DNA of 64,000 bases from a phage. The notes under the pieces were generated by a model that did no database searches, was not told the origin of the DNA, and saw nothing but the letters and a program-made list of their open reading frames with translations. The stretch is from the sequence record OZ470804.1; one strand, written 5' to 3'. The first letter of the stretch is position 1. Every line of letters starts with the position of its first letter. The position numbers were made by a program, and so were the translations under genes. Shown here piece by piece: positions 3,936 through 48,751 of this stretch.

Positions 3936-4297
3936 AATGACCTCAAAGTTATATTAAATTTTGTATTACATTGAGTATAAAAATAAGCTATAACACCTGA
4001 CTTGTCAACAGATTTTATAGCTTATTTGGCAGATTTTTTATAAGGCTACTGCCATCCTTCCATACCGAACCGTGCCTAACCTGACCATGCCACACCTTAC
4101 AATACCAAACATTACTTAAAAACCCTCTTAGAAGACTCTTAAGTGATGTAATCGAATTTTAATGTAGCTCCGATTAACTACCCATACCTGACCAGACCTT
4201 GCCAAACCTTACCTCACCCAACTACACCGAACCTCATTAAAAGACCCTCTTAAAAGACCTTTTAAAAAGGAGCCTCCGAAGAGGCTACCTAGTCAAC
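3936..4297. repeat. structured intergenic leader, copy 1 (paralog of 5344-5772)
   Basis: shares modules GGCAGATTTTTTATAAGGCTACTGCCATCCTTCCATAC, TTTTAATGTAGCT-loop hairpin and C/A-rich G-poor tracts with the second copy. Confidence 0.7.
4262..4287 (-). terminator. intrinsic terminator (minus strand)
   Basis: hairpin AGCCTC-CGAA-GAGGCT with A-run on plus strand (T-run on minus) just downstream of ORF 4298-4738. Confidence 0.55.
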
Positions 4298-4738
4298 TTA
4301 GAAAGGTTTTCTACGTTGCTTGTTAATGTTAGCTTTCATAGCAGCTAAATGGTTTTGCTGTTCAATCAGTCGTGAACGTTCTTGATGACTAAGCGCCATA
4401 GTGTTCACATTCTCAATTGCTTGAGTGGCTTGCTTTAAAGCTCGACCAATCTTACCAGACATTTTGCGTTTTGCAATAGTTGCTTGATGCTTAGGTTCAA
4501 CCACACGATAACCAACACCCATTGAAGCAACCAGATAAATCTTCTCTTCTTTAAGAAGCTTTTCAATAAACTTCTCAAGTCGGTTTAGACGTGTAAGTGC
4601 ATAAGCCTTCATTTCATCTTCGTACTTAACAATGTCGCCTTGATAAGTTGGCTTCACAATACCTAAGAAGGTATCCATCTCAGAGTGTGATACAGTGTCA
4701 CCGTAACTAAACTTTGCTGCTAATGCTTTTGTATTCAT
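4298..4738 (-). CDS. hypothetical protein
   Basis: 146 aa ORF. Confidence 0.5.
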   Translation of the reverse strand: MNTKALAAKFSYGDTVSHSEMDTFLGIVKPTYQGDIVKYEDEMKAYALTRLNRLEKFIEKLLKEEKIYLVASMGVGYRVVEPKHQATIAKRKMSGKIGRALKQATQAIENVNTMALSHQERSRLIEQQNHLAAMKANINKQRRKPF

Positions 4739-4740
4739 AA

Positions 4741-5772
<1,032 letters not shown>

Positions 5773-41369: not shown

Positions 41370-41600
41370 GGGCTTTTTCATTTCAGAATTGTGCAGGTAT
41401 ATTTCTATAGAGAAATCTGTAGAGGAAATTTTGAACTCCAAAGAGAAAATTCATTTTCAAACTGTGCAGATAATCTCCAAAGGACTTTTTCATTTTCAAA
41501 ACGTGCAGACCCCGCTCAGGTCGGGCAAGAAAAATCATTTTAGAATTGTGCAGGTAGGTGGGTGCAGGTGTGGATGTCGCCATTTCTCACAAGGCTACCA
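41370..41600. repeat. iteron-like array (4-5 copies of TCATTTTCARAAYTGTGCAGRT)
   Basis: copies near 41380, 41450, 41495, 41540 plus GGGTGCAGGTG; about 45-55 bp spacing. Confidence 0.6.
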
Positions 41601-41733
41601 CATCTGAAAAGAAAAGTCAACAGAAAAATTTGTAGCGGATTGAAAAATAATTCTTGATTGTAGTTCTGTTTTGTGGTAGTCGCGTGCGCCCGTTTCATTA
41701 CAGTTTTTTGCAAAAATATTTTTAAAATTCCTA

Positions 41734-41762
41734 TTGACTCTCTGACTATGGTTATTTAGTAT
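41734..41762 (+). promoter_or_regulatory. sigma70-type promoter
   Basis: TTGACT-17 bp-TAGTAT in AT-rich region upstream of first small gene. Confidence 0.55.
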
Positions 41763-41812
41763 TTGCATCAGACAGGCAAACAAGCCTACTTCCTAAACTG
41801 GAGATTTAAAAA

Positions 41813-42019
41813 ATGATTTACAGCCGTGAATTGATGGTTACAACCAACGTTAATACAAAGGTAAAACGTTTTTACATGCAAGTGTGCGGCGCATGGCGTA
41901 GAATATCAGAAGCTGATTATTGCAACTATGTAGAAACGGCAATCAATTCTAATTGCTACCTTACGAAGAATACAAAGCGACATATAAAACAGACAGCGGT
42001 TTACTATTACGATATATAA
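41813..42019 (+). CDS. small hypothetical protein (array gene 1)
   Basis: 68 aa ORF preceded by conserved TAAACTGGAGATT RBS block. Confidence 0.5.
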   Translation: MIYSRELMVTTNVNTKVKRFYMQVCGAWRRISEADYCNYVETAINSNCYLTKNTKRHIKQTAVYYYDI

Positions 42020-42020
42020 A

Positions 42021-42109
42021 AAGTACTTTACAGGGGGCTTAAAAGCTGATATCTTAAGCCCCAGATAAAGAGCTTTACTAAATTAACCCTTAAACTAGGA
42101 GATTCAAAA
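42021..42109 (+). promoter_or_regulatory. leader cassette type A, copy 1
   Basis: AAGTACTTTACA, GGGGCTT..AAGCCCC hairpin, AGATAAAGAGCTTTAC, TAAACTAGGAGATTCAAAAATG. Confidence 0.65.
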
Positions 42110-42493
42110 ATGGCTTATCGTGCACCTAAATTCATCAACAAAGACAACTTTCGCAACGCACTGGAGAAGTCACTTGATGAAAATTTTAAAGGTAACATTA
42201 TCGTTGTTCACGCATTCAATTTTAAGTATGATGTAAACGGGAATAGAATCAACCATTACACAGCAACCATGTTAGATGGTACGCTATCAAGTGAAAAAGC
42301 TGTACTGAATGCACTTGCAGGACGTGGTAAAAACCTGATAAGATGCGATAAGAGACGTTATCAGGGTGGCGCATATGGTTATGATGATGCTGTTTACCAT
42401 CTTGAAAATATGGGCTATCAAGTAGAAAAAGCTGGAGCATCACAAATCATCGGCAGCGATGGTTATGTAACTATCTTCAAAATTAACAAATAA
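42110..42493 (+). CDS. small hypothetical protein (array gene 2)
   Basis: 127 aa ORF driven by type A cassette. Confidence 0.55.
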   Translation: MAYRAPKFINKDNFRNALEKSLDENFKGNIIVVHAFNFKYDVNGNRINHYTATMLDGTLSSEKAVLNALAGRGKNLIRCDKRRYQGGAYGYDDAVYHLENMGYQVEKAGASQIIGSDGYVTIFKINK

Positions 42494-42579
42494 AGTACTT
42501 TACAAGGGGCTTATAGTTCGATAAAGTAAGCCCCAGATAAAGAGCTTTACCACTCAATCCTAAATTGGAGAACTTAAAA
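42493..42579 (+). promoter_or_regulatory. leader cassette type A, copy 2
   Basis: same cassette with compensatory stem variant GGGGCTTAT..TAAGCCCC. Confidence 0.65.
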
Positions 42580-42837
42580 ATGGCTATTATCAAAAACGTT
42601 GTAATTACTGCAAAGACTCGTGATGACGCTCGCGTTATGGCTAAAAAGTTATGCGGGAAAGTGGTTGACAACGGAAAACAATCCGCTGTAAGGTGGAACG
42701 TGAAGTCGGATAAGCAATTAACCTTAAAACGTAATTCAAACAACCTTTTTAAAGGTGTAAAATCACTCGGTAAAGTGAACGTGTTTACCAAAAAAGGCTA
42801 TAAAATGCACTTATCATTAACTGGCAATTTAATCTGA
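42580..42837 (+). CDS. small hypothetical protein (array gene 3)
   Basis: start set to ATG 42580 by analogy with other cassettes; ORF-track start 42565 is TTG. Confidence 0.5.
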   Translation: MAIIKNVVITAKTRDDARVMAKKLCGKVVDNGKQSAVRWNVKSDKQLTLKRNSNNLFKGVKSLGKVNVFTKKGYKMHLSLTGNLI

Positions 42838-42839
42838 TA

Positions 42840-42925
42840 AAGTACTTTACAAGGGGCTTAAAAGTTGGTATCTTAAGCCCCAGATAAAGAGCTTTACCAC
42901 TAAATCCTAAACTGGAGATTCTAAA
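42840..42925 (+). promoter_or_regulatory. leader cassette type A, copy 3
   Basis: TTTACA-17 bp-TATCTT promoter-like spacing overlapping the hairpin. Confidence 0.65.
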
Positions 42926-43222
42926 ATGAAATTATCGAATAAAGTTCGTGAAAATCTAAGCAAGTTACTCAACAAAATTGATTTTATCGAGACATCAAGA
43001 AATAGTCATGATGTTATGGAATGGTTACACGGCAAAATAAAAGGCCGTCGTGTAGTGATTTGCTTATGGAATAGTTGCAGGGAATATAAAAAACCTGTAT
43101 TGCAAGTTAATATTTATGATGATACTTTTAAAAGTCCTGTAAAGTCTAAAAGCGATTTATTAGAATCCTATGAGATAACTGTAAATGGCAAAGTGTCACG
43201 TAAAGAGGAAACACCATGTTAA
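42926..43222 (+). CDS. small hypothetical protein (array gene 4)
   Basis: 98 aa ORF. Confidence 0.55.
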   Translation: MKLSNKVRENLSKLLNKIDFIETSRNSHDVMEWLHGKIKGRRVVICLWNSCREYKKPVLQVNIYDDTFKSPVKSKSDLLESYEITVNGKVSRKEETPC

Positions 43223-43548
43223 TGACTGGTATCACTGCAATCATTGCCATTTTCGCGCTATATAAGGCATATAAAGCCTATAATCTAGCAAATAAGGCAA
43301 TCACACAGCAGGTTAGCAATAACCTTGTAGAAAGCTTTCTAGGGCGTCTCAGTGATGAGCAAATAAAGCGGTTAGAAATGAGCTTCAGATTTCAATCAAA
43401 AACTTATCAAATCAGCGACATTTTCAAAGATGATTTTCAGCTAGTCGATGATTATAATGCTCTGATAAATGCTTTAAATGTCAGTGACTTAAAAGACTAT
43501 TACGCTGTAATTGTTCAAGAATTAAGCAAACGAAAAAATTTCTCTTGA
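43216..43548 (+). CDS. small membrane protein (array gene 5)
   Basis: N-terminal TM helix MLMTGITAIIAIFALY. Confidence 0.5.
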   Translation: MLMTGITAIIAIFALYKAYKAYNLANKAITQQVSNNLVESFLGRLSDEQIKRLEMSFRFQSKTYQISDIFKDDFQLVDDYNALINALNVSDLKDYYAVIVQELSKRKNFS

Positions 43549-43638
43549 TTTTAGTTTTAAAAACAAGTAAATTATCAATCAACGGGGAGGGAATGACCTT
43601 CCCCACTAAGTAAAGTCCTTAAACTAGGAGATTCAAAA
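43545..43638 (+). promoter_or_regulatory. leader cassette type B, copy 1 (promoter + leader hairpin + RBS)
   Basis: TTGATT-17 bp-TAAATT then GGGGAGGGAATGACCTTCCCC hairpin then TAAACTAGGAGATTCAAAAATG. Confidence 0.65.
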
Positions 43639-43911
43639 ATGTATACTACTAACAACGGTCGCACTCTAAACGTAACCCTACGCCACTATGTGAACGGTGT
43701 AATGCACTTCGAGGATTTACAAGCTGAACAGCACATTTTGGATTGGCAACTTGCAGGACTCCAAAAAACTGCTACCGGATACGGGAAAAAGATTCCAACT
43801 AGCTGGAAAGTATACTACGAAGGACGTTTGCGCAGAATTTATCAGGATGTATATAGCAATAGCGCAACAAGTTACATCATGGTAAAAGGTAAAAAATTAC
43901 ACTTAGTATAA
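43639..43911 (+). CDS. small hypothetical protein (array gene 6)
   Basis: 90 aa ORF. Confidence 0.55.
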   Translation: MYTTNNGRTLNVTLRHYVNGVMHFEDLQAEQHILDWQLAGLQKTATGYGKKIPTSWKVYYEGRLRRIYQDVYSNSATSYIMVKGKKLHLV

Positions 43912-43996
43912 AGTACTTTACAAGGGGCTTATAGTTCGATAAAGTAAGCCCCAGATAAAGAGCTTTATCACTCAATCCTAAATTGGAGATTCTAAA
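43911..43996 (+). promoter_or_regulatory. leader cassette type A, copy 4
   Basis: near-identical to copy 2. Confidence 0.65.
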
Positions 43997-44401
43997 ATGG
44001 CTATTAATAATCGTGAGTTATCAATCTTAAAAGCACGTTTGACCGTTAACCGGATTAATGTTATTACGTCGTCAGCACCTGATGAGACATTGCACAACAT
44101 TATCGGGAAGATTCAAAGTGTTATCTTAGACGTTGAAAGCGTAAAAAACTCATTGGCTGACGTTGCAGCAGGTATCACGCTAGACGGTGCACAATATGAA
44201 ATGGCTGACATGTTAGGCAAATCTAAGGTAATGAATAAAGAGCTTGATTTAAAAATGTTCCGCTTTGCCGTGAAAGTGTGGCTATCTGTCGAGTATGACG
44301 CAAATTTTGCAATCGCTGACTTTTTCGCAACATGGTTGCAACGTAATTTGACAAATCACGATTTTCGTGATGTCTGTGATGCAATTTATGCAGAACTCTA
44401 A
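43997..44401 (+). CDS. small hypothetical protein (array gene 7)
   Basis: 134 aa ORF. Confidence 0.55.
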   Translation: MAINNRELSILKARLTVNRINVITSSAPDETLHNIIGKIQSVILDVESVKNSLADVAAGITLDGAQYEMADMLGKSKVMNKELDLKMFRFAVKVWLSVEYDANFAIADFFATWLQRNLTNHDFRDVCDAIYAEL

Positions 44402-44410
44402 AAAATTTTG

Positions 44411-44502
44411 TTGACACTGGTTTTTAGATAGATTAAATTACACATCAACGGGGAGGGAATGACCTTCCCCACTAAATAAAGTCCTAAACTGGAGATTCTA
44501 AA
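44411..44502 (+). promoter_or_regulatory. leader cassette type B, copy 2
   Basis: TTGACA-17 bp-TAAATT then GGGGAGGGAATGACCTTCCCC. Confidence 0.65.
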
Positions 44503-44700
44503 ATGGCTATTATTAACGGTTTAACCATTGAAACTACACACATCAAAGATATCAAAGTTGGCGATATAGTCCTTTCCCACGGCGTAGAAAAAACTGTCAC
44601 TGCAAAGGATATCAAAGAGGATTCTTTCATGGGTAGAACTCTCTTCGGTGATTCTTATTGCTTAGGTTATCTTGCAGTTTTAAAAGTTGTCAAAAATTAA
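44503..44700 (+). CDS. small hypothetical protein (array gene 8)
   Basis: 65 aa ORF. Confidence 0.5.
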   Translation: MAIINGLTIETTHIKDIKVGDIVLSHGVEKTVTAKDIKEDSFMGRTLFGDSYCLGYLAVLKVVKN

Positions 44701-44706
44701 GTAATA

Positions 44707-44792
44707 AAGTACTTTACAAGGGGCTTAAAAAGTTGGTATCTTAATCCCCAGATAAAGAGCTTTACACAGTCCTTAAACTAGGAGATTAAAAA
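44707..44792 (+). promoter_or_regulatory. leader cassette type A, copy 5
   Basis: GGGGCTTAAAAAGTTGGTATCTTAATCCCC variant. Confidence 0.6.
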
Positions 44793-45041
44793 ATGATGAA
44801 TTATTTAAACATTCCCGACACTTGCAAACTGTTAACGCAACCAGAAAATTTAGGTAAGGCTTACCTATACCATATGCCAAATAATACGGCAAAAACTTAT
44901 AGTTACACTGTTAACCGATTCACGGCATACGCTGCAAAAAACGGTTACAAGGTTGTTACTCAAAAAGTAACACTGTTTACAACTGTTGAGGAACTCCCCA
45001 CGGTTGCAGTTAAACTGATTTTTTCAAAGAAAACTAAATAG
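44793..45041 (+). CDS. small hypothetical protein (array gene 9)
   Basis: 82 aa ORF. Confidence 0.5.
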   Translation: MMNYLNIPDTCKLLTQPENLGKAYLYHMPNNTAKTYSYTVNRFTAYAAKNGYKVVTQKVTLFTTVEELPTVAVKLIFSKKTK

Positions 45042-45126
45042 ATTTCTTTACACGGGGTTATCAAGCTGATAAGATAGCCCCAGATAAAGAAATTTATCAA
45101 ATAAATCCTAAACTGGAGATTCAAAA
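45041..45126 (+). promoter_or_regulatory. leader cassette type A, copy 6 (diverged)
   Basis: GGGGTTATC..GATAGCCCC stem keeps pairing despite sequence change. Confidence 0.55.
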
Positions 45127-45669
45127 ATGAAATGTTTTCACGGTACTACTCAAGAAAACTTTATCAACCTGATTAATAACGGTGATAAACCATCAGGCGC
45201 ATGGAATTGTTCTGATATGGATGGGAATTTTTACGTTTACCCAGAGAATAAAATCTATGGCGACGATGAGGAAGAAATAATCTTTGAAGGTATCCAGCAA
45301 GCTCTGGGCAATGCCACTATCACCGCAGCTTTTCAGATGAAAACTCAAAACATTGTTATCTTGGAACTTGAGATTCCAGAAGATGAGCTAAACGATGATT
45401 ATTCTTGTGATAATATGTCGAGCGTGGCAAGTTTTACAGAATATTTCGATTTAAATTGGATTAAAAAGGTTTACATCACTGAATTTAATGCTATGTATTC
45501 GCCTTTTTGTCTTCCTTCACTGGATAACCCAAATATGAATTATCTTGATGAGACATTAGAACTACTTGCTAAAAGTGTTCAACAATCGGACAGTATTCAG
45601 GTTTTTTGTGACATCATGGACACACTAACGGAAAACATCGCAGAAGAGGATTTAAAGAGCTTTTTCTAA
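45127..45669 (+). CDS. hypothetical protein (array gene 10)
   Basis: 180 aa acidic ORF followed by terminator. Confidence 0.55.
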   Translation: MKCFHGTTQENFINLINNGDKPSGAWNCSDMDGNFYVYPENKIYGDDEEEIIFEGIQQALGNATITAAFQMKTQNIVILELEIPEDELNDDYSCDNMSSVASFTEYFDLNWIKKVYITEFNAMYSPFCLPSLDNPNMNYLDETLELLAKSVQQSDSIQVFCDIMDTLTENIAEEDLKSFF

Positions 45670-45701
45670 AAACCTATGCAATCACATTATAAACACTATT
45701 C

Positions 45702-45721
45702 AGCCCCTTGTAGGGGCTTTT
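45702..45721 (+). terminator. intrinsic terminator
   Basis: AGCCCC-TTGT-AGGGGCT followed by TTT. Confidence 0.55.
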
Positions 45722-45735
45722 AAGAGGCTTAAATC

Positions 45736-45969
45736 ATGCTTACAACCGTTTATCTTATCCTTTCTATATGTAATGGTCATTCATGCGATTTTAAAGGGCT
45801 TGAAGAGTTTACAGGAAGTAAAGAAAATGCTATTCAAGTTTGCCAGATAGCGAGACAAGACTATCCCGCAAGTGATGATATTCAGTGTTACTTTAAGACA
45901 GAAGATGAAGACGGTATCTATTTTGACAGTGTAGATGGTCAGTATGAAATTATCATTGAAAAAGACTAG
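45736..45969 (+). CDS. small hypothetical protein (array gene 11)
   Basis: 77 aa ORF. Confidence 0.5.
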   Translation: MLTTVYLILSICNGHSCDFKGLEEFTGSKENAIQVCQIARQDYPASDDIQCYFKTEDEDGIYFDSVDGQYEIIIEKD

Positions 45970-46058
45970 ACAAGCCTGATAAAAATCTGTAAATTGTCAA
46001 TCAACGGGGAGGGGATGACCTTCCCCACTAAATAAAATCCTAAACTGGAGATTCAAAA
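45967..46058 (+). promoter_or_regulatory. leader cassette type B, copy 3
   Basis: TAGACA-17 bp-TAAATT then GGGGAGGGGATGACCTTCCCC. Confidence 0.65.
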
Positions 46059-46400
46059 ATGGCTTATGTAACCGTAATTACCGATAAAGCTGGCGCATCT
46101 TGGTCAACTCAAGTAAGCGATAAGATGTCACCTATGCAGTGCCTAAAATACTTTGAGCAATGGAACAAAGGCGAGGATGTCAGCCCCTTTCAAGTAATGC
46201 AGATTATCCATACAGATAACGAAGGGAAGAAAACTGTTTTGAATAGTGAGTACTACGCAACCAGATTTGAAACGAGATGTAAAGCAATGAAGCTCTTGCG
46301 TGAGTCTGGTTATTCTCATATTGCGGCAATAATCTGGGATGACTTGCTAAAAAGTCAGCGTATCAGCTATGTAAAACCTGAAAAAATATTCATCAGTTAA
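46059..46400 (+). CDS. small hypothetical protein (array gene 12)
   Basis: 113 aa ORF. Confidence 0.55.
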   Translation: MAYVTVITDKAGASWSTQVSDKMSPMQCLKYFEQWNKGEDVSPFQVMQIIHTDNEGKKTVLNSEYYATRFETRCKAMKLLRESGYSHIAAIIWDDLLKSQRISYVKPEKIFIS

Positions 46401-46432
46401 TCAATAACTTACAAAAAACTTTTAAAAAAGTG

Positions 46433-46461
46433 TTGACAATGCCCCTTGACATTGGTAACTT
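46433..46461 (+). promoter_or_regulatory. putative promoter with tandem TTGACA boxes
   Basis: AAAAAGTGTTGACAATGCCCCTTGACATTGGTAACTT. Confidence 0.4.
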
Positions 46462-46529
46462 TGTTCGAGGGGGTTTATCTAAAAGGGATTAACTTAAAAG
46501 ATTCTTTATAGATAAACTTAAAAAATTGC

Positions 46530-46622
46530 TTGCAATCAGATATCAAAACAAGTAAATTACTAATCAACGGGAGGCGATAACCTCCCCACTAAGTAAAGTC
46601 CTTAAACTAGGAGATTCAAAAA
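46530..46622 (+). promoter_or_regulatory. leader cassette type B, copy 4
   Basis: TTGCAA-17 bp-TAAATT then GGGAGGCGATAACCTCCCC variant hairpin. Confidence 0.6.
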
Positions 46623-47153
46623 ATGAACAAGTTCAAAGCTATCAACTTCATTCGTTCAAATAGTGTTATGTCAAAGCCTGTTAAAGACACCTATGAATTT
46701 CGTTGTAATGGTGTACATTTTGCAACAATCACCAAATCAGAAAACGGGGCTTATTACGTCCATCGTCGTAATGTTTCTACTGTTGTAGTTTCTCACTTTA
46801 TGCAAGCTGTCGCGGAACTTCTCCCGATGTTTTTAGGTCTTTACTTAGATGAGTGTAAAAACGTTTACAATCACGTTAAAAACCTTTTAAACAGTTATAA
46901 AATGGCTTACGAACGCTCTATCAAGTCCTTAAACAAGTTCTATAAAGCCCCTGCAAATACTGTATCAATGGCCTATGGCGTAGGTGGCTGGACTTTTAAC
47001 CTTTCCCTAGTGGAAGAAATCGAGCTTTATGATTTACGTCCTAATGGTTACTCTAAGACACTGGGAGAAGGTTTAACGTTCAATATCAAAAACTTAGAAA
47101 AAACTTTAAAAGATATTGAAAAAGATATTGACGAAACAATCAAAAACCTGTAA
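46623..47153 (+). CDS. hypothetical protein (array gene 13)
   Basis: 176 aa ORF. Confidence 0.55.
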   Translation: MNKFKAINFIRSNSVMSKPVKDTYEFRCNGVHFATITKSENGAYYVHRRNVSTVVVSHFMQAVAELLPMFLGLYLDECKNVYNHVKNLLNSYKMAYERSIKSLNKFYKAPANTVSMAYGVGGWTFNLSLVEEIELYDLRPNGYSKTLGEGLTFNIKNLEKTLKDIEKDIDETIKNL

Positions 47154-47243
47154 TTTGTCAATCAACGGGGAGGGAATGACCTCCCCCCACTACATAAAAC
47201 CCTTAAACTAGGAGATTCAAAAATGGTGATAAGAAAGAAGTAG
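47128..47243 (+). promoter_or_regulatory. leader cassette type B, copy 5 (orphan, drives only a 6-codon ORF)
   Basis: TTGACG-17 bp-TAATTT then hairpin then RBS then ATGGTGATAAGAAAGAAGTAG. Confidence 0.55.
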
Positions 47244-47245
47244 TG

Positions 47246-48110
47246 ACCATGTTAATAGCTTGTTAAAAAGATTAGACACTTGTTAGGAACTTGTTAATTA
47301 TCTTAACAAAATAACTCTTAAAAATTAACTTGTTAGCTCTTGTTAGTCATCTGTTAAGATTCTGTAAAGCCTATTCAGCACTTGTTAAGAAACTGTTAAA
47401 GCCTTGTTAGTTCTGTTAAGAATCTGTTAAGACCTTTGAAGAGTTGTTAAGAAGATGTGAGAGCTGTTAAGAGATTGTTAAGGATATTTTAAAATTTTGC
47501 AAAGGGGATGTTACAGGGATGTTAAGGGCTACCAAGCAGATATACATCTTCTACAGATATTTTTGAGTTCCTTCAAAGACCCTAAAAAATGACTTGATAG
47601 TCCTATTTTATAAAAATTTTAAAATTCTGAATAATTACCTAGACAGTCTTTTAAAAATACAGGTAGAAACAGGCTTATAAGATACCTTGTTAGTACCGTG
47701 TTAGACCTTGTGAGATAAGGTCTGTGAAGATATTCCTGTTAAGTTTGTTAAAACAGTCTATATAGAGGCTTAGTAATACCTAGTGAACACCTATAGAGAG
47801 TCACATAGCTTACATAGAGATTAAGAGGTGTATAGGAGCTTCTAAGAGTGTGTAGAGAGATGGTTAAGATGATTGTATAGGTTGTTTAGAAGGCTTGTTA
47901 GAAGAGTGTTTAGATGGCTATTTAGAAGGGCTATACAGAGGGCTATTAAGACCACTAGATAGTTACTAAGATACTATATAGTACTATATAACTATATAGA
48001 GAGTAAGATTAAGAAGGTTGTTAAGAAGGATAGATATTTTATTCACATATGATGGTGACCCAGAGGTTGGGACAACCGATAAAATTTTATAAAAAATATA
48101 AATTTCGTAA
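47246..48110. repeat. non-coding block of degenerate ~11 bp periodic repeats (YTGTTAAG / TTGTTAG / TATAG units)
   Basis: more than 20 copies of CTGTTAAG-like units between 47270 and 47480, further TAGAG/TTAAG/TATAG units to 48050; no ORF longer than 60 codons. Confidence 0.7.
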
Positions 48111-48137
48111 ATTTTACTCAATAAAAAGCCCCCGATT
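48110..48137 (-). terminator. intrinsic terminator (minus strand)
   Basis: AGCCCCC..GGAGGCT hairpin with plus-strand A-run, downstream of ORF 48158-48751. Confidence 0.45.
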
Positions 48138-48157
48138 AAGGAGGCTCTTAAGATATT

Positions 48158-48751
48158 TTAAATCAGTGTTTCCAGAACTGTTTTTAATGATGACTTGGTT
48201 GTCTGATAAAAATGAGTAAATCCATTGTTGTTATCAAATACCTGCATCATGATATCATCTCCCTTGATTGGGTACACTCGGATATCATAGTGAAAACCAT
48301 TAAAGACACAAGAACCACTACAGAATGCTCTAAAGTCATCCACTGAGATATACTCTTCATGACCTGTGATTTTTATACAAACACCTTTACTCGGTCTCTT
48401 AGGGTTGATATCTTCCATCACAGACATACTCTGTCCACCAAGAGATACCATAGTGACTACTTTACGGTTCTTCTGTCTAAAGTACATCTTAACTTTCTGT
48501 AAAGTGTCTTCATAGAACGGATAAGACTTCTCTACAAAGATTCCTTCAAGTGGCTCTTTACCATTTTTAACTTCTCTGTAACCACGTACTGCAAAAACAA
48601 TCTGTTTTAATCTGTCAAGACTTTCTTCAGAGAGTGCTTCTTGAGCATCACTCCAGTCAAGGACTAGATAGTTACCTTCAACATCTTTTAAGTTATCTTT
48701 TTCCATAACTATCACACCATTATCGTAAAACTTGGTAAGCTGGAACTGCAA
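48158..48751 (-). CDS. hypothetical protein
   Basis: 197 aa ORF. Confidence 0.5.
   Translation of the reverse strand: MQFQLTKFYDNGVIVMEKDNLKDVEGNYLVLDWSDAQEALSEESLDRLKQIVFAVRGYREVKNGKEPLEGIFVEKSYPFYEDTLQKVKMYFRQKNRKVVTMVSLGGQSMSVMEDINPKRPSKGVCIKITGHEEYISVDDFRAFCSGSCVFNGFHYDIRVYPIKGDDIMMQVFDNNNGFTHFYQTTKSSLKTVLETLI

Follow-up and report, generated by a model that had tools for sequence, protein, structure and literature searches.

Features at the end of the early region

We analyzed a window of 64,000 nt from the phage sequence record OZ470804.1 (one strand, 5' to 3'). A 4-kb query around the promoter cassette described below matched 258 phage records at 88–91% identity, almost all of them Felix O1-like myoviruses, which assigns the window to the genus Felixounavirus (subfamily Ounavirinae). 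The nearest phage records overall are 92–94% identical to the window, and the window sequence itself was found in none of the collections searched. Its coding density is 86%, and it is otherwise well formed and contiguous over 64 kb. For comparison, 59 loci were fetched; the cassette was aligned in 22 orthologues, and the left-end motif of the terminal repeat was examined in 35 loci.

The cassette lies after the last small gene of a cassette-rich early region, where the following features were found:

43545–43641, 44411–44505, 45967–46061 and 46530–46625, plus strand: four other type-B cassettes, each driving a small early gene
46623–47153, plus strand: upstream gene, homologue of Felix O1 ORF22 (gp22; 176 aa, phrog_4725)
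47128–47156, plus strand: sigma-70-type promoter of the orphan cassette (TTGACG, 17 nt, TAATTT)
47167–47186, plus strand: GC hairpin with a 7-bp stem (GGGGAGG/CCTCCCC) and a 6-nt loop (GAATGA)
47210–47225, plus strand: Shine-Dalgarno AGGAG (47210–47214), 8-nt spacer and ATG, the former start codon of gene 23 (see below)
47223–47243, plus strand: 6-codon junction ORF, MVIRKK-stop, with ATGG from gene 23 and the remainder from inside the direct terminal repeat (DTR)

The –35 hexamer TTGACG (47128–47133) is separated by 17 nt from the –10 hexamer TAATTT (47151–47156), and the TAA stop codon of the 176-aa upstream gene falls inside the latter. The hairpin begins 14 nt past this stop codon and 3–4 nt past the predicted transcription start (around 47163–47164), and it dominates the folded leader of the cassette. 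Among 41 element variants from the window and its relatives, all of which retain hairpin potential (–5.7 to –15.6 kcal/mol), it is the most stable (–15.6 kcal/mol). The codons after the ATG at 47223 are GTG ATA AGA AAG AAG TAG.

The first-pass annotation had described an intact promoter, a hairpin and a ribosome-binding site in front of an ATG at 47223 that opens a reading frame of only six codons. The hairpin, the ribosome-binding site, the ATG and MVIRKK-stop can all be read directly from the sequence. As for the promoter, the TTGACG/–10 pair with its 17-nt spacing is present, but the word intact is too strong, since the –10 hexamer departs from the TAAATT of the paralogues. TAATTT is private to the window: all four window paralogues (4/4) have TAAATT, and the aligned orthologous cassettes have TAAATT in 21 of 22 cases and TAAGTT in the remaining one. 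With three of six consensus matches, the orphan –10 leaves the promoter below the threshold of the consensus promoter scan, which lists the copies at 44411 and 45967. We also considered accelerated decay of the cassette and rejected it; its three private substitutions in about 100 nt lie within the genome's 6–10% divergence from relatives and are uninformative. A search of positions 41500–48300 against Rfam 15 gave no match at or above the gathering score, and its two sub-threshold chance hits lay elsewhere in this interval. In the precomputed Pfam labels of the collection, gp22 homologues (including loci L032–L050) carry PF26821 (Phage_T4_Y16F), a T4 early-protein family; this family is absent from the Pfam scan of the window's own gp22 protein (46623–47153).

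The cassette, which the first-pass annotation had called type B, is the fifth copy of a repeat family (repeat families D2, D6 and D7; 65–100% identity over 40–89 nt). The –35 hexamers of the other four copies lie at 43545, 44411, 45967 and 46530. A 29-nt exact repeat, far beyond chance, is shared between 47198–47226 and 42085–42113. The five type-B copies and about six type-A copies all lie within 42.0–47.2 kb. In the type-A cassettes (window 42018–45127), the hairpin GGGGCTTA..TAAGCCCC is placed between TTTACA and the –10 hexamer and is followed by AGATAAAGAGCTTTAC; their GGGGCT..AGCCCCAGATA motif is also present 3' of gene 23 in relatives, just before the terminator t23. At the upstream edge of the cassette-rich region, positions 41436–41554 contain three tandem-like 35-nt direct repeats (CTCCAAAGAGAAAATTCATTTTCAAACTGTGCAGA) with spacings of 39 and 45 nt.

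Gene 23 and adjacent DNA are absent from the window

We aligned the locus with those of related phages, a comparison that the first-pass annotation had proposed, and found a gene at the position of the 6-codon ORF, namely Felix O1 ORF23 (82 aa). In about 290 relatives, the orthologous cassette drives this gene, which in some of them is preceded by an 87-aa gene; UAB_69, tootiki, Felix O1 and Bas63 are among the phages in which it precedes the 82-aa gene. Downstream of gene 23, the relatives have t23, then a conserved non-coding stretch of about 480 bp, and then a DTR of 570–660 bp. In Felix O1, t23 was described as an intrinsic terminator after ORF23 by Whichard et al. (PMC3185647). The Felix O1 intergenic region between genes 22 and 23 (PMC3185647) is the orthologue of the orphan cassette, with flanks that are 85–95% identical; however, the Felix O1 locus contains ORF23 and t23, whereas the window has neither.

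In UAB_69, tootiki, Felix O1 and Bas63, gene 23 starts with ATGGC(A/T)ACTATCCGC.., and t23 is followed by about 750 bp of non-coding DNA before the sequence reaches ..GGGAACGATAAGAAAGAAGTAGTGACCATGTTAATAGC. The window reads ..AAAAATGG-T-GATAAGAAAGAAGTAGTGACCATGTTAATAGC, that is, the ATGG of gene 23 is fused straight to about position 274 of the DTR. The T between them (47227) also occurs as a natural variant in EC6, and Felix O1 has an identical GATAAGAAAGAAGTAGTGACC within its DTR. The missing segment thus comprises codons 2–82 of gene 23, t23, the conserved non-coding DNA of about 480 bp and DTR positions 1–273. Measured between the counterparts of 47226 and 47228, the interval is 1.0–1.37 kb in the first 21 spanning comparison loci, reaching about 1.37 kb in relatives that also carry the 87-aa gene; in locus L023, which has a deletion of its own, it is 0.70 kb. 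From the junction onwards, the window contains the following features:

47226–47228, no strand: novel junction ATGG-T-GATAAG, at which about 975–1010 bp of the relatives are missing
47228–47533, no strand: retained right 306 bp of the DTR, corresponding to positions 274–579 of the CRP22 DTR (93% identity)
47250–47526, plus strand: array of TGTTAAG-type heptamers in the retained DTR half, with nine exact copies at 47302–47526 and more with one mismatch
47536–48157, no strand: conserved non-coding DNA from the DTR to the first minus-strand gene, including a terminator at 48129–48143 (minus strand)

Judged by this alignment, the orphan appears to be the cassette that regulates Felix O1 gene 23, now lacking the gene it served. 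The codons of MVIRKK past ATGG are terminal-repeat DNA that happens to be open in frame, a by-product of the junction. This ORF is unique to the window and conserved nowhere, and it should not be annotated as a gene. The slot had earlier been said to look decayed; a gene is indeed missing, but the proposed mechanism does not fit, as the whole gene, t23 and about 750 bp of conserved non-coding DNA are absent rather than eroded.

A point mutation or sequencing error that creates a premature stop in an otherwise present gene would account for the short ORF itself and for nothing further. Neither gene 23 (tblastn with gp23) nor the lost DNA (blastn with the lost segment) was found past the stop codon or anywhere else in the 64-kb window, and homology resumes about 1 kb further on in the coordinates of the relatives. 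We therefore exclude such an error, which had been named as a possible refutation, and give this explanation next to no weight.

The repeat-rich block and the direct terminal repeat

The repeat-rich non-coding block that had been noted directly after the stop codon was recovered at 47244–48157, where it forms the largest non-coding gap in the window. In UAB_Phi87, direct terminal repeats of 608 bp were determined by Bal31 digestion and run-off sequencing (PMC4837284). The record of UAB_69 annotates a DTR of 618 bp in the corresponding non-coding region, and that of CRP22 has an identical 579-bp copy at each end, the limits of which agree within 2 bp with those of UAB_69. These correspondences indicate that the block is the terminal-repeat region of the genome.

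The DTR maps only to 47228–47533/5 of the window, and the physical right genome end of relatives maps to 47533–47535. As in other Felixounavirus genomes, the right terminus ..GATGTTAAGGGCTACC is present; however, the window lacks the left 273 bp and the left end, in which it stands alone among about 290 genomes. The conserved left-end motif GCCCCCTTAACA is present in all of the loci examined (35/35), and the CRP22 record and two metagenomic contigs (L041 and L042) begin exactly at it. The conserved left terminus GCCCCCTTAACAT.. had no match in the window with up to three mismatches. To the right of the block, the first minus-strand gene is a homologue of ORF24 (48158–48706) with its own terminator at 48129–48143 (minus strand).

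The terminal non-coding region of relatives shows a switch in heptamer polarity (UAB_69, L001 5840–7400; window 47250–48025). Minus-oriented heptamers (CTTAACA/CTTAAAA type) occupy the stretch of about 480 bp that precedes the DTR as well as the first 30 bp of the repeat itself, and plus-oriented ones (TGTTAAG type) fill the rest, so that the polarity switches at the left end of the DTR; the window retains only the plus arm. These heptamers may be binding sites for terminase or a replication protein.

A deletion in the phage or an artefact of assembly

Homology is lost at 47226/47228 in all 257 matching phage records, and the junction was absent from every collection searched (phage records, IMG/VR, JGI metagenomes, GTDB genomes and the 59 fetched loci). 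There is no microhomology at the junction. The left breakpoint, 47226, lies within 0–2 nt of the end of the dispersed 29-nt repeat shared with 42085–42113; in an ancestor with ATGGC(T), this repeat would extend only 1–2 nt further. The right breakpoint lies at no repeat boundary that we could find. The non-coding DNA that was lost has counterparts in 256 phage records, at least 80% of it being covered in 238, and for much of it conservation is roughly at the level of coding sequence (40-column blocks score 0.84–0.98).

We narrowly prefer, with a probability of about 0.5, the reading that a genuine deletion of about 1.0 kb occurred in the phage, extending from after the fourth base of gene 23 (ATGG) to inside the DTR and taking the conserved physical left end with it. 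In favor of a real molecule, the junction lies within a contiguous 64-kb sequence of normal coding density. Moreover, no k-mer is shared across the junction, and de Bruijn repeat collapse therefore cannot have created it. On the other side, the lost DNA is near-universal, the junction has no microhomology (compared with 8–9 bp in both natural deletions at this locus, described below) and the left breakpoint almost coincides with the end of a dispersed repeat. In addition, normal packaging is difficult to square with a DTR phage that has lost its left cleavage site.

Alternatively, the ends of an incomplete linear contig may have been joined during assembly or finishing, for example on re-permuting to a conventional start. 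The phage would then have a normal gene 23, t23 and a full DTR, and the orphan cassette and its 6-codon ORF would not exist in the virus. The two contig ends would have lain, respectively, on the final base of the dispersed cassette repeat and within the DTR. The coincidence of 47226 with the exact end of the 29-nt repeat, the absence of microhomology and the loss of near-universal DNA that includes the physical genome end all fit such a join, as does the fact that the junction was found nowhere else. Assembly problems are also common in terminal-repeat regions; L018, L013 and L021/EC6 are assemblies that stop within these cassettes, and a record of the same genus, EcF-vB, has an inverted mis-join inside the DTR, 131 bp away. 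However, standard pipelines circularize a DTR genome without losing sequence, no repeat boundary was found at the right breakpoint, and the remainder of the window looks well assembled. We regard an artefact of this kind as quite possible, at somewhat below even odds. Given that the junction is unique and devoid of microhomology, that its breakpoint is at a repeat end and that the left genome end is lost, we rate a genuine deletion and a finishing artefact as nearly even.

We searched for an independent assembly of the phage. An exact-protein look-up found gp22 on no record, and a look-up with neighboring proteins gave 30 further loci, all with a normal region or with other deletions. The Logan contig L043, at 99.3% identity to the window, ends at 48024, short of the junction. 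We also examined a wrap-around of record ends, for the match to REP12 seemed to begin at base 1, and rejected it; REP9 and REP12 have a normal locus with the extra 87-aa gene. Until reads confirm the junction, the record should carry a flag stating that it is without gene 23, t23 and half of the DTR.

The record of EcF-vB (L029, PV683228.1, 84,200–84,380; 98 kb, marked UNVERIFIED) joins a block of minus-strand genes in inverted orientation to DTR-internal sequence, 131 bp left of the right breakpoint of the window, and looks like a fold-back mis-assembly.

Properties and natural losses of gene 23

ORF23 encodes an 82-aa protein of 9.68 kDa; Pfam gave nothing for it, and PHROGs placed it only in phrog_4559, a family of unknown function. 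Although its gene lies in the early region (Felix O1, 1558–1806 of L003), gp23 was detected in purified virions of this phage with four peptides and 53% coverage (Whichard 2010, PMC3185647). Homologues down to 44% identity were found in 224 records of Felixounavirus, Suspvirus and Mooglevirus. In Bas63, the homologue is gene 111 (by locus tag). The study of that phage annotates it as a membrane protein, and gp111 goes unmentioned in the cryo-EM paper on Bas63. In the PhageMaP data for Bas63, knock-outs of gene 111 score 0.06 to 0.76, whereas those of essential genes score –2 to –4.

Two independent natural deletions of the gene were found among the fetched loci. In L023 and L030, codon 43 of gp22 is joined to the base after the gene 23 stop codon through a 9-bp repeat, AACGGGGCT. 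In L039, the start of the cassette hairpin is joined to the same place through CAACGGGG. Both deletions keep t23 and the entire terminal region. Because the Bas63 knock-out scores are neutral to positive and the gene was lost independently in these two cases, we conclude that gene 23 itself is dispensable. The deletions (L023 4080–4140, L030 5564–5700 and L039 2040–2080) lie between GGGG-containing direct repeats of 8–9 bp in metagenome or SRA assemblies, and both end exactly before the hairpin and t23 that come after gene 23. The slot array is hyperplastic, with gp22, the 87-aa gene and gp23 each variably present: some relatives lack gp22, and in others the additional 87-aa gene is present, with cassette sequence on its flanks.

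Predicted consequences of a deletion

If the deletion is genuine, host sigma-70 RNA polymerase would still initiate around 47163–47164, probably more weakly because the –10 hexamer is TAATTT. The 5' stem-loop may stabilize the transcript, and by analogy with the T4-type cassettes discussed below it may attenuate read-through from at least four upstream early promoters. Ribosomes would translate the six codons. With t23 gone, early transcription would continue into the DTR, including the TGTTAAG heptamer array. If the template is injected linear DNA, it would run off the right end about 310 nt past the ATG, and on concatemers it would proceed antisense into the convergent minus-strand genes. 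A terminator scan found no plus-strand terminator between the orphan cassette and 48157; the sequence therefore predicts that the orphan promoter, if active, fires unterminated into the DTR, in line with the other reading offered in the first-pass annotation, a promoter that fires into the repeat region. A literature search found no Felixounavirus transcriptome.

A second question is whether a phage with the deletion would be viable. It is possible, at somewhat below even odds, that such a phage propagates without the left 273 bp of the DTR, the left cleavage site and the upstream non-coding DNA of about 480 bp, which about 290 relatives have kept. In that case, the packaging or terminus signals must lie in the retained right half (the TGTTAAG array) or be redefined, and the phage would also tolerate unterminated early transcription into the DTR. 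A real junction would be a natural experiment that reveals what portion of the Felix O1-type terminal region the phage can do without, and would narrow the search for the packaging signals of a phage genus that is widely used in therapy and diagnostics.

The arrangement might instead be a purposeful unit, in which a regulatory RNA or the 6-aa peptide acts on the terminal repeat, for example if transcription activated replication or packaging there. The promoter, hairpin and ribosome-binding site are retained, and RNA synthesis from this promoter would reach the heptamer array; in other phages, origins or pac regions are known to be transcribed. However, the arrangement occurs in one sequence only, its junction being absent from the 59 loci and the 257 records, and the relatives examined place a gene and the strong terminator t23 between the promoter and the DTR. 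Furthermore, the mini-ORF is conserved nowhere, an Rfam match is lacking, and the –10 hexamer is weaker here rather than stronger. We consider a purposeful unit very improbable.

Resemblance to the stem-loop cassettes of T4-type phages

Promoter-early stem-loop cassettes (PeSLs) have been described in T4-type phages (Arbiol et al. 2010, PMC2839356; Comeau et al. 2014, PMC4122927); those of RB49 and phi1 were shown to be strong promoters, with stem-loops that are strong attenuators. The cassette family of the window resembles these PeSLs, by which we mean an analogy in how the units would work and not strict membership. Both are multi-copy intergenic units of about 100 bp that carry the stop codon of the upstream gene in an AT-rich 5' part, a sigma-70-like –35/–10 pair with a spacing of about 17 nt, a GGGG...CCCC stem-loop (between the hexamers in type A of the window, just past the –10 hexamer in type B) and a Shine-Dalgarno sequence with an ATG at the 3' end. 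Both also cluster among small early genes of unknown function that are present or absent between close relatives, and show deletions at GGGG-containing short repeats. The other type-B copies (4/4) have their own Shine-Dalgarno sequence and ATG driving an ORF, whereas the orphan has only the 6-codon ORF.

However, the window phage is a myovirus of the Ounavirinae and not T4-type, its cassettes are without sequence homology to the T4-type cassettes, and their promoter and terminator activities are predicted, whereas those of RB49 and phi1 were shown. In addition, the right junction of the orphan is outside any cassette, and we accordingly rejected PeSL–PeSL recombination as its origin. Our literature search found no paper linking PeSLs to Felix O1-like phages, and Whichard et al. 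2010 (PMC3185647) listed the Felix O1 repeats without interpreting them. The early region of Felix O1-like phages can thus be viewed as a set of PeSL-like promoter/stem-loop cassettes flanking shuffled small genes, which would extend beyond the T4-type phages a mechanism described so far only there.

Stem-loops at the 5' terminus of the ompA type act as mRNA stabilizers. The orphan hairpin resembles them in lying 3–4 nt from the predicted 5' end of its transcript, a likeness of position only, counted from a start site that is itself predicted, and the type-B hairpin could also act as a 5' stabilizer.

Other repeats in the window

A second repeat-rich non-coding region lies among minus-strand genes at 4026–5720. 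It contains a 40-nt exact repeat at 4026 and 5403, and three to four copies of an 86–98-nt unit with ACC-rich short periodic repeats, each ending in ..TTAAAAGACCCTCTTAAAAGAC... At 58100–63560, repeated T-arm/acceptor motifs reveal a cluster of tRNA genes, as expected for the genus (Felix O1 has 22).
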